Positions 57,902-63,420 of a stretch of 64,000 bases of DNA are shown in pieces. The DNA is from Ostreococcus lucimarinus (lineage: Eukaryota): NCBI GenBank assembly GCA_000092065.1, contig CP000601.1. One strand, written 5' to 3'. Each line of letters starts with the position of its first letter. Position 1 is the first letter of the stretch. A program made the position numbers and the translations under genes. The notes under the pieces are model-generated. The model was not told the origin of the DNA. It saw only the letters and a program-made list of their open reading frames with translations, and did no database searches.

Positions 57902-58678
57902 CTATCGTCTTCGTTTCACGCCCGTGCTCGGACCGTCCTCGTCCATGTCCTCGTCCTCGTCGACGCGCTCGGCGACGTCCGGCTCGGCGGCTTTGAGTTG
58001 TTTCTTCGTCTCCTCTATCGCGGCGTTGAGCTCGTCCTCGCGCGCCAGTGATTCCGCTTTTTCACTCGACACGTACGCAATTTGCTCATTCAAACTCGCC
58101 AACATCGTTTCCGTTATCGCGTGCCACCGCGAGACGTCCGCGATGACGCCGTCGAGCGCGCTCGCTCGCGCGTCTCTCGCCTTCGCGCGTCGAACCCGTA
58201 AAACTTTATTTTTCGGATCGAGCCTTCCCCACACGATTTCTCCCAGGCACTCGTCGACGATGAACTTTTCCATCGCGCGTTCGCTCGTGAACTCCAGCTC
58301 TCGCATCAATCGTACGTACGCGATCGTCCCTCCCTCCGCGCACAGCGCGCACGTCGACAGTCGCTTCAGTTTCGCCTCCTCGCGCGTCGTCAGCGTCGGC
58401 AACTTTTCGTTTGCCGCTCGCGCGCGATATTCGCGCAGCGTGCCGTGCGCGAATATTTCCACCATCGCGCGCACCTCCGCCGCGCACTCGAACCCCTCCG
58501 TGCGCTCCATGGCGTGCAGTATCTTCGTCACGCGCATCGCGTCGCGCGCCTCGAGCGCCTCGCCGAGCGCGTCGCGATCGAGCGTCTTCGTCGTCGCGAT
58601 CGACGTCGCGCACCGCGTCACCGCGCCGTCGTCGGGCGTCATCGACGCCATCGCATCGTCCTCGTCGTCGGCGCGCAT
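57902..58678 (-). CDS. CSN7: COP9 signalosome subunit 7 (CSN7, PCI domain)
   Basis: FAHGTLREYRA...LPTLTTREEAKLKRLSTCALCAEGGTIAYVRLMRELEFTSERAMEKFIVDECLGEIVWGRLDPKNKVLRV follows the CSN7 PCI pattern. A coiled-coil acidic C-terminus follows. Confidence 0.6.
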   Translation of the reverse strand: MRADDEDDAMASMTPDDGAVTRCATSIATTKTLDRDALGEALEARDAMRVTKILHAMERTEGFECAAEVRAMVEIFAHGTLREYRARAANEKLPTLTTREEAKLKRLSTCALCAEGGTIAYVRLMRELEFTSERAMEKFIVDECLGEIVWGRLDPKNKVLRVRRAKARDARASALDGVIADVSRWHAITETMLASLNEQIAYVSSEKAESLAREDELNAAIEETKKQLKAAEPDVAERVDEDEDMDEDGPSTGVKRRR

Positions 58679-58810
58679 CGCGAGCGAACGACGCGCGCGA
58701 GTGTCGATCGATCGGCCCCGAATCCCAATCGCGCCATCTGTTCATCCATCCATCCACGCATCCATTCTTCTCTCCGCGGTCACATCGCGACGTCGGCGCG
58801 GTCGAGGGCG

Positions 58811-61414
58811 ATGCGAGGCGGACGACGCGACGCGATGCGCGCGCTCGCGCGACGATGCGCGGGCGCGACGACGGGCGCGACGACGGGCGCGACGACGACG
58901 ACGACGACGACGACGACGGCGCGGCGGTTACCGCGCGCGCGCGAGCGACGGGTCGAGCGGGACGCGGGACGCCGCGCGCTGGCGACGCGGGCGGCGCGGG
59001 ACGTCGAACTGACGTGCGCCGCGTTCGCGGTGTGGGGGGCGAACACCGCGGTCGGGAAGACGCTGGTGTCGGGAGGACTGGCGCGCGCGGCGCGGAGCGC
59101 GGAGGCGGGGACGCTCTTCGTGAAACCCGTGCAGACGGGATTCCCAGAAGATTCAGACGCCGCGTTCGTGGCGCGCGTGAGCGGTGGCGTGGAGAGCATG
59201 GGCGAACACGCGGCGGTGGCGGCGGGAGAAACGGCGAGGAAAGGATTAGAGGGCGATCGAGGGGCGTGGGCGCACACCGAGTTTGCGTGGCGACGCCCCG
59301 CGGGGCCGCACGTGAGCGCGGCGGAGGAGGGGAGAGGCGTTTTAGACGATGACATCGTGCGAGCGACGTCGAGATATTTGAGAGAATTCGCGGAAAAAAT
59401 GCGAGCGAACGAATCGGGGCAGCAGCGAGCGTTGGCGCTCGTCGAAACCGCGGGAGGGGTGGCGAGTCCGGGGCCGTCGGGAACGCTGCAATGCGAGCTT
59501 TTGCGCGGGCTACGATTGCCAGCCATACTCGTGGGTGACGGGCGTTTGGGCGGGATATCTGCCACCACGGCCGCGTACGAATCACTGCACGCGAGAGGGT
59601 ACGACATCGTCGCCATCGTCATGGCGGACGATGATGGTTTGGCCAATCACAAAGCCATGGCAAAGATTTTGCCGAGCGAAACCCGCGTCTGGGCGCTTCC
59701 GCCTCTGCCCCCAGAAGGACAAGCGGACGCTTGGCTCGAAGACTCAAAGCACACGTTCGACGATTTACTGAAATACATCACAAAATGGCACGACGATCGC
59801 ATCAAAACTCTGCAAAGTCTTCCAGACGAGGCTCTGACGAAGATTTGGTGGCCGTTTACGCAGCACGCGATGGTGGAGCGCGACGCCGTCACGGTGATCG
59901 ATGGGAGATATGGTGAAGATTTCGCAATCTACGCCCAAAACACGCACTCATCGAAAGATGGCTCCATAGTACTTCGCTTTGATGGTTCAGCGAGTTGGTG
60001 GACGCAAGGTTTGAGTCCAGAATTGCAGCAAGAGTTGGTTCGCACCGCGACGCATGCGGCGGGACGATTCGGGCACGCGATGTTTCCAGAAAACGTGCAC
60101 CAGCCCGCCGTGGACGCGACGACGGCATTATTAGAAGGACCTGGGAAAGGTTGGGCAGCTAGAGCATTTTATTCCGACAACGGATCGACTGCGACAGAGG
60201 TTGGGTTGAAAATGGCTTTTCGCAAGTTTTACGTCGACGCAGGCTTTGTGTCTAAAGACGGCAATCAGAGAGCGAAAGATCTCGTCAACAAAGGAGCCGA
60301 TGACTTACCTCCGCTGCGAATAATAGCATTGGATGGTTCGTATCACGGTGATACTCTCGGTGCGATGGATATGCAATCACCGAGCGTTTTTACGGGTCCA
60401 ATGCAAACGCCCTGGTACCAACCTCGCGGACTGTTCCTTCAGCCTCCGAGTTTAGCGATCAGAGAAGGACGTTGGAACGTGGCGTTGCCGCGTGATGGAT
60501 TATTGAACGACGGCGATCGACTCTTCCGCGAAGGCAAAGATGTGGATGAGAACACCAGTTGGACTAGCAAGGAGGCGGCTTTCAACATCGCTGCGCGTCT
60601 CGACAGCCCGCTCGCAAAAGAATACAAAATTGCGATCGACAAAGTCTTAGAACGCGCCGCGAAAGACGCCAAGGATAATAACATGGGTCACGTCGGGGCT
60701 TTAATCATGGAACCCGTGCTTCACGGTGCAGGTGGGATGGTTTTGATTGATCCGTTGTTTCAAAACATTCTCATGAAGTCGTGCCGCGAGCGAAAGATTC
60801 CAGTCGTCTTGGACGAGGTATTTGCTGGCATTTGGCGATTAGGCACGGAAGGTGCGTGGGAAATCATAGGCGAAAAACCCGATATTTCGTGCTACGCAAA
60901 ACTTCTCACTGGTGGGCTCATTCCCATGTCAGCCACGCTCGCGACGGCGGATGTCTTCGACGCTTTTTACGGCCCTGGAAAAGCCCAGGGCTTGTTACAC
61001 GGGCACTCGTACACGGCATACCCCATGGGATGCGCCGTGGCGGCGAAAGCGCTTTCTATGTACAAAGACCCCGCGAAAAATCGCAACGTGATCGTCTCAA
61101 AGTCTTCGAGTACGGGCGAGCCTACGTCGGTGCTTCGCGAGCTCTGGGACGAGGACGCGTTGAAGAAAATTTCCACTTTGAGCAACGTTCGCCGAGTCAT
61201 CGGTCAGGGTTGTGTCCTCGCCGTCGAGCTCGAGGTCGAAGGTGAAGGTGGTTATAGCTCCAACGCCGCTCGAGACGTCGTCATGCGTCTTCTTCCCCAC
61301 TCCATCCAAGCGCGTCCTCTGGGTAACGTCGTCTACCTCATGTGCGCGCCGACGACGTCCAAAGACGCGTGCGACGTCCTCTTGAGCGCGCTCGCGACAG
61401 AGCTCGCGGCGTGA
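58811..61414 (+). CDS. BIO3-BIO1: Bifunctional dethiobiotin synthetase / 7,8-diaminopelargonate aminotransferase (BIO3-BIO1 fusion) with mitochondrial-type presequence
   Basis: The N-terminal BioD domain has the P-loop VWGANTAVGKT and VKPVQTG. The C-terminal class III aminotransferase has DEVFAGIWRLGTEGAWE and the PLP Lys in CYAKLLTGG. The track ORF starts at 58445, antisense to CSN7. The internal ATG at 58811 (MRGGRRDAMRALARR) was confirmed. Confidence 0.85.
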   Translation: MRGGRRDAMRALARRCAGATTGATTGATTTTTTTTTARRLPRARERRVERDAGRRALATRAARDVELTCAAFAVWGANTAVGKTLVSGGLARAARSAEAGTLFVKPVQTGFPEDSDAAFVARVSGGVESMGEHAAVAAGETARKGLEGDRGAWAHTEFAWRRPAGPHVSAAEEGRGVLDDDIVRATSRYLREFAEKMRANESGQQRALALVETAGGVASPGPSGTLQCELLRGLRLPAILVGDGRLGGISATTAAYESLHARGYDIVAIVMADDDGLANHKAMAKILPSETRVWALPPLPPEGQADAWLEDSKHTFDDLLKYITKWHDDRIKTLQSLPDEALTKIWWPFTQHAMVERDAVTVIDGRYGEDFAIYAQNTHSSKDGSIVLRFDGSASWWTQGLSPELQQELVRTATHAAGRFGHAMFPENVHQPAVDATTALLEGPGKGWAARAFYSDNGSTATEVGLKMAFRKFYVDAGFVSKDGNQRAKDLVNKGADDLPPLRIIALDGSYHGDTLGAMDMQSPSVFTGPMQTPWYQPRGLFLQPPSLAIREGRWNVALPRDGLLNDGDRLFREGKDVDENTSWTSKEAAFNIAARLDSPLAKEYKIAIDKVLERAAKDAKDNNMGHVGALIMEPVLHGAGGMVLIDPLFQNILMKSCRERKIPVVLDEVFAGIWRLGTEGAWEIIGEKPDISCYAKLLTGGLIPMSATLATADVFDAFYGPGKAQGLLHGHSYTAYPMGCAVAAKALSMYKDPAKNRNVIVSKSSSTGEPTSVLRELWDEDALKKISTLSNVRRVIGQGCVLAVELEVEGEGGYSSNAARDVVMRLLPHSIQARPLGNVVYLMCAPTTSKDACDVLLSALATELAA
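58861..58917. repeat. Three copies of a 12-mer (GGGCGCGACGAC) followed by a (GAC)n run, inside the BIO3-BIO1 presequence coding region
   Basis: Read directly from the sequence. It encodes the GATTGATTGATTTTTTTTT stretch. Confidence 0.7.
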
Positions 61415-61656
61415 TGTAACATTATACTATTTTTGTGTTGTCATCGCGTCGTTTTCGCTCCACTCTCTCCCCCCTCGACGACTTCATCGCGTCGTTTGTC
61501 GAGCACAGTCTCTAAAATCTCGTCCCGGTGCCGAGCGCGGTTCGCGAACCTCGACCGACGTCCCATCGCGAGGTCGTTAAAAATAATCGCGATCGGATTG
61601 CGGCGCGTGTTCGTCGTCATAACGCGTCGTCGTGCGTCGTCAGACTCGCCGTCGAC

Positions 61657-63420
61657 ATGGCTGATCAAGTCATCGTCATCGGCGGTGGTCTCGCGGGCCT
61701 GTCCGCGGCGCACACCGTCATCGAACACGGCGCGCGCGTCGTGTTGCTCGACAAATGTTCCTTCCTGGGCGGGAACAGCACGAAGGCGACGAGTGGGATT
61801 AACGGAGCGTTGACGAAGACGCAGGCGCGGTTGAACATTCCCGACAGCGCTGATAAGTTTGAAGATGATATCATCAAGGGCGCGGCGGGCGTCGGGCACA
61901 CCGAAGCGCCGGCACACACGGTGCCGCTCGCAAAGGTGCTGGCGCAAGGAAGCGGTTCGAGCGTGGATTGGTTGATGGAAAAGTTTAACCTTGACTTGTC
62001 CCTCGTCGCGCAGCTCGGTGGGCACTCGTTCCCGCGAACGCATCGAGGCAAAGAGCGGTTCCCAGGGTTCACGATCACGTACGCCCTGATGGAGGGGTTG
62101 GAGAAGATTATGGAGGAGACGAATGGGGAAATTGCGCGAATCGTGACCAAAGCCGAGGCAAAGCGGTTGCTAAAGGACGGAAGTGGTACCGTGATCGGGG
62201 TGGAATACGAGAAGGGTGGCGCTTTACATCAAGAGTACGGTCCAGTCGTCATCGCTACCGGTGGTTTCGGTGCGGATTACCAGTCAGACTCGTTGTTGAA
62301 AAAGTACCGACCCGACTTGCAGGCGCTGCCGACGACGAACGGTGACCACTGCACGGGGGATGGAATCAAGATGGCCTTGGCCGTCGGAGCGGATACGATC
62401 GATATGGAGTCTGTGCAAGTGCATCCTACCGGATTAGTCAACCCTTCAGAGCCAGATTCCAAGGTGAAGTTCTTAGCCGCCGAGGCGCTTCGAGGCGTCG
62501 GAGGCATCCTCCTGGACGCAGACGGGAACAGATTCGCCGATGAGCTCGGTCGACGAGACTACGTCAGTGGTGAAATGAACAGAAACAAAGGGCCTTTCCG
62601 TTTGATTCTGAACGGCAAGGCTTCAAAGGAGATCGAATGGCACTGCAAGCATTACGTCGGGCGAGGCATCATGAAGCGTCACGATACGGGTGCCGAAGTT
62701 GCAAAAGAAATGGGCATCAGTCCACAAAAGCTCGCCGACACCTTTGCCAAGTACAACGAAGCCGCTCGAACGAAGAAGTGTCCGTTCGGTAAAAAGTTTT
62801 TCACCAACGCTCCGTTCGAAATGAATGATTTCTTTCACTCCGCCATCGTGTGCACCGTCGTGCACTACACCATGGGTGGACTCGCCATCAACACTGATTC
62901 GCAAATCGTCGGGTCGTCAGGACCGATTCCTGGTTTATACGGTGCGGGCGAGGTCGTTGGGGGTATTCACGGCCGTAACCGACTCGGTGGTAACTCTCTG
63001 TTGGATTGCGTCGTCTTTGGTCGCGTCGCGGGTGCCTCAGTTTCTCGACACCTCATGGCGACGGCTATCAAGGCGCTTAGATCTGGTCAATCCGTCGCTC
63101 TTAATCGCGTCGCTAACTTGAACGACAAGATCAACCCATCCATGAGCACGGCGTCCGCCGCGCCAGTGTCTAGCGGTGGCGGTGCTCGCGCTATCACCAT
63201 GGATGAAATCGCGAAGCACAACTCCGAGGGCGACCTCTGGGTCATCATCGAGGGCGCCGTTTACGATCTCACGACTTTCTTGCCCGATCATCCAGGTGGA
63301 AAGAAAGCGATCATGCTCTTCGCCGGAAAGGATGCCACTGAAGAGTTCAACATGCTCCACCCTCCGAACGTCTTGAAGAAATATCTCTCTCCAGACGCGA
63401 AGATTGGAACCGTCGCGTGA
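61657..63420 (+). CDS. Soluble FAD-dependent fumarate reductase (flavocytochrome, Osm1/Frd-like) fused to a C-terminal cytochrome b5 domain
   Basis: The FAD-binding motif reads QVIVIGGGLAGLSAAHTVIEHGARVVLLDK. A succinate-DH/fumarate-reductase flavoprotein fold follows (HYTMGGL, GLYGAGEVVGGIHGRNRLGGNSL). The C-terminal cyt b5 heme motif reads DLWVIIEGAVYDLTTFLPDHPGGKKAIMLFAGKDATEEF. The track start is GTG 61528, and the ATG at 61657 was confirmed. Confidence 0.8.
   Translation: MADQVIVIGGGLAGLSAAHTVIEHGARVVLLDKCSFLGGNSTKATSGINGALTKTQARLNIPDSADKFEDDIIKGAAGVGHTEAPAHTVPLAKVLAQGSGSSVDWLMEKFNLDLSLVAQLGGHSFPRTHRGKERFPGFTITYALMEGLEKIMEETNGEIARIVTKAEAKRLLKDGSGTVIGVEYEKGGALHQEYGPVVIATGGFGADYQSDSLLKKYRPDLQALPTTNGDHCTGDGIKMALAVGADTIDMESVQVHPTGLVNPSEPDSKVKFLAAEALRGVGGILLDADGNRFADELGRRDYVSGEMNRNKGPFRLILNGKASKEIEWHCKHYVGRGIMKRHDTGAEVAKEMGISPQKLADTFAKYNEAARTKKCPFGKKFFTNAPFEMNDFFHSAIVCTVVHYTMGGLAINTDSQIVGSSGPIPGLYGAGEVVGGIHGRNRLGGNSLLDCVVFGRVAGASVSRHLMATAIKALRSGQSVALNRVANLNDKINPSMSTASAAPVSSGGGARAITMDEIAKHNSEGDLWVIIEGAVYDLTTFLPDHPGGKKAIMLFAGKDATEEFNMLHPPNVLKKYLSPDAKIGTVA

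Follow-up and report, generated by a model that had tools for sequence, protein, structure and literature searches.

The window analysed here is a 64,000-nucleotide stretch of contig CP000601.1 (assembly GCA_000092065.1) from the picoalga Ostreococcus lucimarinus. Close to its end it carries a gene for a fumarate reductase (FRD) flavoprotein with a cytochrome b5 domain at the C terminus. An earlier note, made from the letters of the sequence alone, had placed such a fusion at 61657-63420 and described it as a soluble, Osm1-type flavin adenine dinucleotide (FAD) enzyme of a photosynthetic alga. Domain calls (PF00890, PF00173, and TIGR01813, with the HPGG motif at residues 545-548) and alignments agree with that description, and the product is an exact match to a protein of O. 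lucimarinus CCE9901. In the list of open reading frames (ORFs), the gene lies within a 630-codon ORF on the plus strand (61528..63420) which opens with GTG and whose first internal ATG is at 61657. Translation of 61657..63420 on the plus strand gives an uninterrupted protein of 587 amino acids (aa), with the TGA stop at 63418-63420. The features of the locus are as follows.

61415..61656, plus strand: 5' intergenic/leader region; no ATG in any frame, in-frame stop (TAA) at 61513
61657..63420, plus strand: coding sequence of the FRD-cytochrome b5 flavocytochrome, single-exon and complete; 587 aa and TGA; equals XP_001421094.1
61669..63000, plus strand: FAD-binding fumarate reductase domain with flavin and clamp sub-domains (PF00890, TIGR01813, Osm1 match, Foldseek)
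61681-61698, plus strand: Rossmann GxGxxG motif (GGGLAG), residues 9-14
62422..62424, plus strand: His256, equivalent to Osm1 H281 and Fcc3 H365, substrate binding
62482..62493, plus strand: Glu276 to Arg279, equivalent to Osm1 E301/R304 and Fcc3 E378/R381, proton delivery path
62554..62556, plus strand: Arg300, equivalent to Osm1 R326 and Fcc3 R402, catalytic proton donor
62863..62865, plus strand: His403, equivalent to Osm1 H435 and Fcc3 H504, substrate binding
62980..62982, plus strand: Arg442, equivalent to Osm1 R477 and Fcc3 R545, substrate binding
63115..63180, plus strand: Ala/Ser/Gly-rich hinge, residues 487-508 (NPSMSTASAAPVSSGGGA...), with an AlphaFold2 predicted local distance difference test (pLDDT) score <50
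63196..63414, plus strand: cytochrome b5 haem-binding domain, residues 514-586 (PF00173)
63289-63291, plus strand: axial ligand His545, within HPGG (residues 545-548)
63358-63360, plus strand: axial ligand His568

The gene is real and intact, and its sequence and two-domain architecture were already known from GenBank, UniProt, and IMG. The 587-aa protein is identical to GenBank XP_001421094.1/ABO99387.1, 'predicted protein [Ostreococcus lucimarinus CCE9901]'. It is named 'Cytochrome b5 heme-binding domain-containing protein' in UniRef/UniProt and 'flavocytochrome c' in IMG, and 503 blocks of public assemblies, most of them marine metagenomes, encode the same sequence. The protein also appears under two O. 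lucimarinus accession pairs (ABO99387.1/XP_001421094.1 and ABP01219.1/XP_001422860.1), which suggests a duplicated segment or a redundant assembly in this genome.

The reductase part of the protein was readily assigned. Residues 5-448 matched the Pfam family FAD_binding_2 (PF00890) with an E value of 1.4e-70, far over the curated cutoff, and the NCBIfam flavocytochrome c model TIGR01813 scored 376.9 bits against a cutoff of 285.45. The closest solved relative was yeast Osm1 (5GLG; E 7.4e-89, 42% identity), followed by the Shewanella flavocytochrome c3 (Fcc3) fumarate reductases (E about 1e-66 to 1e-57, 39% identity over the FRD part), and urocanate reductase was a weaker homologue (E 3.6e-48). 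An AlphaFold2 model built with 59 homologues had a mean pLDDT of 87.1 and a predicted template modelling (pTM) score of 0.85, a pTM that does not settle how the domains dock. Foldseek searches with this model returned Osm1 (5glg) at the top (TMt 0.91, root mean square deviation 2.0 Å) and then Fcc3 entries, and model and search together show the fold of two sub-domains, flavin and clamp. The flavoproteins of complex II (SdhA/FrdA) differ from the protein on two counts. Their NCBIfam models scored far under cutoff (TIGR01812, 153 bits versus 567.3; TIGR01816, 108 versus 727), as did the model for L-aspartate oxidase, and there is no His within residues 31-55 (LDKCSFLGGNSTKATSGINGALTKT), where SdhA/FrdA carry their flavin-linking His. 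Because the flavinylation position lacks a His, we infer that FAD is bound non-covalently, as in Osm1.

The catalytic residues provided a stricter comparison. Six residues of Osm1 are common to Fcc3, and an Ala mutant of each cripples activity: H281 (H365 in Fcc3), E301 (E378), R304 (R381), R326 (R402), H435 (H504), and R477 (R544/545) (PMC6242907). Residue-by-residue mapping on HMMER alignments found all six kept in the algal protein, as H256, E276, R279, R300, H403, and R442. An independent alignment to chain 1D4C placed the same six at 365, 378, 381, 402, 504, and 545, a numbering that agrees with the PDB titles of Fcc3 point mutants, and in the alignment the Osm1 R326A mutant chain 6KU6 departs from wild type precisely where R300 stands. 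Across 109 stand-alone FRD-b5 homologues whose domains are complete, the six also show essentially no variation. Loss of the catalytic His and Arg residues had been named in the earlier note as the sign of a different flavoprotein, such as a thiol oxidoreductase; since all are present, the fumarate active site is intact and that alternative is unsupported.

Residues 514-586 matched the Pfam family Cyt-b5 (PF00173; E 6.6e-25, 87.4 bits versus a cutoff of 23.7). The two axial His residues are 23 residues apart, and H545 was kept in 110/113 and H568 in 108/112 of the aligned homologues. In the PDB, the domain was closest to 4B8N (E 2e-35), a cytochrome b5 of the virus OtV-2; the yeast flavocytochrome b2 haem domain came next (E 1.4e-23, residues 512-585), and likeness to microsomal and outer-mitochondrial-membrane b5 was weaker (E about 1e-14). 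The domain is predicted to bind haem b, given that the crystallised OtV-2 protein is about 74% identical to it; according to a review of the OtV-2 work, the viral b5 has b5-type spectra and functionally replaces yeast cytochrome b5. The linker between the FRD and b5 domains is of low complexity and poorly conserved. Two long helices (446-475 and 478-492) are modelled by AlphaFold2 before the hinge, and residues 487-508 are predicted to form a disordered tether between the two domains. Tether and b5 together resemble the mobile-cytochrome design reviewed for flavocytochromes (PMC6472588).

Taken together, every feature of the Fcc3/Osm1 family and of the b5 superfamily that could be checked was found in this protein, which supports its assignment to the soluble FAD fumarate reductases of the Osm1/Fcc3 type, with a b5 haem domain at the C terminus.

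We also considered where such an enzyme would reside and what it lacks. The earlier note had asked whether there is an N-terminal targeting signal, and none was found: the leader has no upstream ATG and an in-frame stop at 61513, the N terminus reads MADQVIVIGGGLAG, and the Rossmann strand begins at residue 4 in the AlphaFold2 model. A hydropathy scan found no transmembrane (TM)-like segment in the protein. The chain ends one residue past the b5 domain (...KIGTVA), with no tail anchor of the kind found in microsomal or outer-mitochondrial-membrane b5 and no PTS1- or KDEL-like C-terminal signal. There is no CxxCH motif anywhere in the 587 aa. The protein is thus probably cytosolic. A Pfam scan for modules that handle NAD(P)H (reduced nicotinamide adenine dinucleotide, with or without phosphate) gave no match to cytochrome b5 reductase, ApbE, FMN_bind, FAD_binding_6, or NAD_binding_1. 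Because no NAD(P)H-oxidising module is present, the enzyme would need an outside electron donor, and the b5 domain alone would be a relay only. The idea that this is a self-contained fumarate reductase, as the earlier note had put it, therefore does not hold.

Comparison with characterised systems makes the combination clearer. Yeast Osm1/Frd1 share the flavin-plus-clamp architecture, the six catalytic residues, and the lack of a flavin-linking His, but they lack a haem domain altogether, and their electrons arrive from free reduced flavins or Ero1/Erv1 by way of a second flavin pocket. Osm1 goes to the endoplasmic reticulum (ER) and mitochondria, whereas the algal protein carries no targeting sequence. 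Fcc3 (1QJD and 1D4C) likewise reduces fumarate with one soluble chain, whose non-covalent FAD receives electrons from a haem domain; it differs in being bacterial and periplasmic and in having an N-terminal tetrahaem c-type domain in place of a C-terminal single b-type haem. The kinetoplastid NADH-dependent fumarate reductases (Trypanosoma brucei FRDg/FRDm1) are eukaryotic, soluble members of the flavocytochrome c family with a C-terminal domain from the b5/b5-reductase system. They are truly self-contained, with an N-terminal ApbE flavin-transferase and a C-terminal NADH:cytochrome b5 reductase domain; the 587-aa protein has neither of these and has the b5 itself. The likeness to the enzymes of yeasts and trypanosomatids that had been drawn earlier is therefore inexact, as the former are haem-free and the latter carry a b5 reductase domain rather than a b5. 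Finally, flavocytochrome b2 (1FCB; L-lactate:cytochrome c oxidoreductase) also joins a b5-fold haem domain to a flavin dehydrogenase by a flexible hinge. However, its b5 is N-terminal, its dehydrogenase is a flavin mononucleotide (FMN) TIM barrel, and its electrons run from substrate to cytochrome c. The homology is in the b5 domain only, and the Pfam scan of the 587-aa protein gave no match to FMN_dh.

The architecture itself is not unusual. A protein search returned 7,674 homologues at E <= 1e-10, and PF00890 and PF00173 occur together in nearly all of the best 120, including transcriptome-derived sequences (MMETSP and EukProt). Examples include Rhizoctonia solani (annotated 'fumarate reductase (NADH)'), Amoebophrya, and many protists grown aerobically for MMETSP/EukProt transcriptomes, and an annotation table lists the architecture in Fusarium oxysporum as well (g7601). 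The FRD-plus-b5 arrangement is thus common in eukaryotes, among fungi, alveolates, and many others, and hence ordinary.

Two sets of relatives extend the FRD-b5 unit. In 26 of the 150 best 50%-identity cluster representatives, ERO1, FRD, and b5 are joined in one chain. A directed search found at least 278 ERO1-FRD-b5 clusters at E <= 1e-50, the best 120 of which all carry PF04137, PF00890, and PF00173. They come from green algae, a cryptophyte, diatoms, labyrinthulids, and diplonemids (Guillardia theta, Prasinococcus, Mesostigma, Hondaea, Mucochytrium, several diatoms, and Diplonema papillatum). Ostreococcus itself has a second FRD-b5 paralogue of this kind, with an N-terminal ERO1; its cluster holds O. 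lucimarinus XP_001420806.1/ABO99099.1, a partial sequence with the FRD-b5 part only. Full-length forms of the Ostreococcus type (P0156/P0284, 1153-1156 aa) open with a signal-like peptide, and the CxxCxxC motif of Ero1 is retained in them. The six FRD catalytic residues are invariant in 136 of the fusions. The fused proteins have the same FRD-b5 unit and retain the C-terminal b5, but differ by the signal-like peptide, the ERO1 thiol-oxidase domain, and a b5 motif that reads HPAG where the 587-aa protein has HPGG. The stand-alone and ERO1-fused paralogues are about 43% identical, and by this comparison the 587-aa protein is a free-standing paralogue without ERO1.

A full-text literature search found no paper describing an ERO1-FRD-b5 fusion. 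In yeast under anaerobiosis, Osm1 passes Ero1 electrons to fumarate; yeast is so far the only organism in which this route has been demonstrated (PMC6242907), although it has been sought in plants (PMC9516139). The fusions thus provide independent comparative support for an Ero1-fumarate reductase pairing beyond yeast. Other data fit the presence of secretory-pathway (ER) fumarate reductases in algae: the Phaeodactylum tricornutum 'fumarate reductase flavoprotein' B7FVF5 is N-glycosylated at four sites, and the fumarate reductase of the chlorarachniophyte Bigelowiella natans has a signal peptide only.

One further sequence feature was seen in the clamp sub-domain. The motif WHCKHY (residues 328-333; 62638-62655) occurs in 87 of the 109 stand-alone FRD-b5 proteins, reads KHV(D/P)(H/L)Y in the ERO1-fused forms, and is not found in Osm1, where its position overlaps pocket residues F362/Y363. 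We rejected it as a b5 docking signature, since it is also present in some FRD-only sequences and absent from the ERO1-fused ones.

The second set comprises relatives of ~1000 aa from Amoebophrya sp. A25 (P0069) and marine protists (the set also holds P0051, P0053, P0067, and P0095), which are 54-58% identical to the O. lucimarinus protein. In these, FRD is followed by two b5 domains and then by a hydrophobic domain at the C terminus, in which a simple hydropathy scan found 3-5 TM-like segments and which contains five invariant His residues. Its sole family match was TIGR02046, the b558-type cytochrome b of succinate dehydrogenase/fumarate reductase (E 2.2e-7, sub-cutoff), and no PDB sequence matched it. 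As the match is below threshold, we call the domain b558-like rather than a member of TIGR02046. From their domain content, these relatives look like single-polypeptide quinol:fumarate reductases free of iron-sulfur (Fe-S) clusters, in which the b5 haems would take the place of the Fe-S subunit of complex II. Two other representatives carry 5-6 b5 domains on the same b558-like anchor, with no FRD. P0132 and P0238 belong to this wider set as well.

These comparisons lead us, with moderate confidence, to view the 587-aa protein as a soluble, most likely cytosolic flavocytochrome b5 fumarate reductase in which the haem would be the point of electron entry. In the proposed working, the b5 haem would swing on the hinge and collect single electrons from a separate reductase, for which NADH-cytochrome b5 reductase is the most obvious candidate and other flavoproteins are possible. 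The haem would then hand the electrons to FAD, which would reduce fumarate to succinate, so that the b5 haem would be the counterpart of the tetrahaem domain in Shewanella Fcc3. Physiologically, the enzyme could act as an oxygen-independent, peroxide-free sink for reducing equivalents, its succinate product being re-oxidised by mitochondrial complex II. Electron entry through b5 is supported by three kinds of fusion: with a b5 reductase in kinetoplastids, with a membrane anchor, and with ERO1.

Several points weigh against this view. The donor reductase is a candidate only. The literature search found no enzymology, spectra, localisation, or expression data for this protein or for any stand-alone FRD-b5; for FRD-cytochrome b5 enzymes, and for fumarate reductase in Ostreococcus, it returned only automated annotations in tables (Fusarium g7601) and nothing biochemical. 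The energetics are also not obviously favourable. Haems of the b5 type usually lie near 0 mV, well above the Fcc3 FAD at roughly -150 mV, so transfer from haem to FAD would be uphill and pulled only by the reduction of fumarate. In addition, 3 of the 7 residues of the Osm1 second flavin pocket are identical in the algal protein (F297, L298, and Y363, kept as F272, L273, and Y333), and with the pocket partly kept, a haem-independent route from free flavins may be conceivable. This last point leads directly to an Osm1-like mode, in which the FRD domain would re-oxidise free FADH2/FMNH2 or dock flavoenzymes through the second pocket, and the b5 would be an accessory (regulatory, for partner docking, or as an additional parallel entry) and not an obligatory step. 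That the closest solved relative, Osm1 (E 7e-89, 42%), is haem-free and uses a second FAD pocket speaks for such a mode. However, two other pocket positions have changed, W295 to V270 and F362 to H332, and the new residues are near-invariant in the FRD-b5 family, and a further one, Osm1 P162, falls in an alignment gap beside a Pro and is ambiguous. The b5 domain and both of its ligands are also kept in more than 100 homologues, which argues for a functional need, and the serial arrangement of two or three b5 domains in some relatives looks like an electron wire. We therefore think the Osm1-like mode unlikely, though it deserves some weight.

Other alternatives keep the haem in the electron path or the fold in place and change what flows where. 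Among solved cellular proteins, the b5 domain is nearest to the haem domain of flavocytochrome b2, which has the same hinge-plus-b5 arrangement and exports electrons. By analogy, the flavin could oxidise succinate or another acid and pass electrons through the haem to an acceptor such as cytochrome c. Such reverse flow seems improbable to us: the covalent-FAD position has no His, and the whole proton path for fumarate reduction (E276/R279/R300) is retained. Fcc3-type enzymes with a non-covalent, low-potential FAD are essentially one-way fumarate reductases. The protein also has no presequence for the mitochondrial intermembrane space, the site of cytochrome c. It is a comparably slim prospect that the enzyme acts on another substrate with the same fold, namely an alpha,beta-unsaturated acid of the urocanate, acrylate, or methacrylate type. 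The TIGR01813 subfamily model does take in non-fumarate enoate reductases, and urocanate reductase is a recognisable homologue (E 3.6e-48). Nevertheless, the matches to Osm1 (E 7e-89) and Fcc3 (E 3e-66) are far stronger, and both His and both Arg residues for the two carboxylates of fumarate are present and invariant in the family. Lastly, the low complexity and poor conservation of the linker might suggest that neighbouring FRD and small b5 genes had been merged by a missed stop, an intron, or an assembly error. We give this almost no credence and rejected a mis-fused gene model, as no stop interrupts the frame, independent assemblies contain the identical fused ORF in 503 blocks, fused transcripts of relatives are found in MMETSP/EukProt, and the fusion is kept from fungi to alveolates.

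The b5 domain of this gene also has relatives in viruses. The PDB entry 4B8N is titled 'cytochrome b5-host origin', and we rejected its reading as a host protein after comparison with the O. tauri orthologue (P0004) and a viral ORF. The entry is an OtV-2 viral protein, 93.5% identical to a 92-aa stand-alone b5 ORF on a 196-kb IMG/VR contig (L009:2962-3240), where two tandem paralogous ORFs adjoin it. Its identity to the b5 domain of the 587-aa protein and of the Mamiellales orthologues is 74-80%. Such b5 sequences were found on 36 viral contigs of the prasinovirus type (L005-L040), and they are 74-82% identical to the C-terminal domain of the 587-aa protein. They share the HPGG...LHPP ligands and the lack of a membrane anchor, but are stand-alone proteins of 91-92 aa with no reductase domain. 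The review of the OtV-2 work likewise noted the missing reductase domain of the viral b5, which implies its presence in the host version. The viral proteins show 72-80% identity to the b5 domains of Mamiellales stand-alone FRD-b5 proteins, but only 46% to the b5 of the ERO1-fused paralogue. Because they are far closer to the stand-alone form, the viral b5 was most likely captured from the lineage of this FRD-b5 gene, as the b5 domain only. The prasinovirus b5 would then be traceable to the C-terminal domain of this particular host gene.

Upstream of the FRD-b5 gene on the plus strand, with its stop at 61414, is a biotin-synthesis gene of the dethiobiotin synthetase/7,8-diaminopelargonic acid (DAPA) aminotransferase type (AAA_26 and Aminotran_3), and downstream on the minus strand is a gene of the alpha-glucan water dikinase type (PPDK_N). 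Antisense ORFs over the FRD-b5 locus gave no Pfam family match. Gene callers give the biotin-synthesis gene a length of 862-867 aa, compared with an ORF of 989 aa. Upstream of its conserved part, at 58445-59000 and in overlapping frames, are long Arg/Ser/Asp-rich ORFs with runs of R, D, S, and T, which are typical of GC-rich low-complexity sequence. As for the start of the FRD-b5 gene in related species, the 614-aa gene model of the O. tauri orthologue (P0004) is extended at its N terminus by 24 residues rich in Arg (MPDARESSTNDRVVTRRRRSRSIA). No such stretch is found in O. lucimarinus, where 61513-61656 lacks an ATG and has the in-frame stop, or in the other orthologues compared, which all begin M(A/S/T)(E/D)QVIV. 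The extension is probably an over-extended model, with a species-specific presequence as the alternative.

The earlier note had also taken the gene as a hint of anoxic or dark metabolism. This inference is weak, since aerobic eukaryotes, fungi and marine protists among them, widely share the architecture, and the presence of FRD-b5 alone says little about anoxic life. The ERO1-fused form is found in diatoms and cryptophytes, and relatives were recovered from culture transcriptomes. A low-oxygen role is nevertheless plausible, since fungal soluble FRD genes respond to oxygen limitation: one soluble FRD gene is up-regulated in anaerobic Mucor, and a Fusarium graminearum co-expression module that includes a sterol desaturase, a sphingolipid desaturase, and coproporphyrinogen oxidase has an FRD listed among its hub genes. 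An oxygen-independent, peroxide-free sink would be equally useful in an over-reduced, illuminated cell. For Ostreococcus, our literature search found no paper on expression of the FRD-b5 gene.

The functional annotation given here applies to a gene entered as 'predicted protein' in GenBank and as 'Cytochrome b5 heme-binding domain-containing protein' in UniProt. In the literature searched, no soluble fumarate reductase with a b5-type haem appears to have been characterised, despite thousands of homologues. The Ostreococcus gene is small and intron-less, and its expression would fill this gap in enzymology.

More broadly, and only tentatively, since we hold the idea with more doubt than conviction, FRD-b5 may be a general eukaryotic module that dumps electrons from flavoprotein oxidases on fumarate instead of O2, with no H2O2 formed. 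This proposal rests mostly on sequences outside the 64-kb window. If it is true, the ERO1 fusion would imply fumarate-linked disulfide formation in the ER, and the b558-type dihaem anchor of alveolates would imply a one-polypeptide, Fe-S-free quinol:fumarate reductase. The 587-aa protein would be the free cytosolic copy, one of two that this obligately aerobic picoalga retains although its genome is tiny. The prasinovirus b5, in turn, could plug into or divert the fumarate route during infection.

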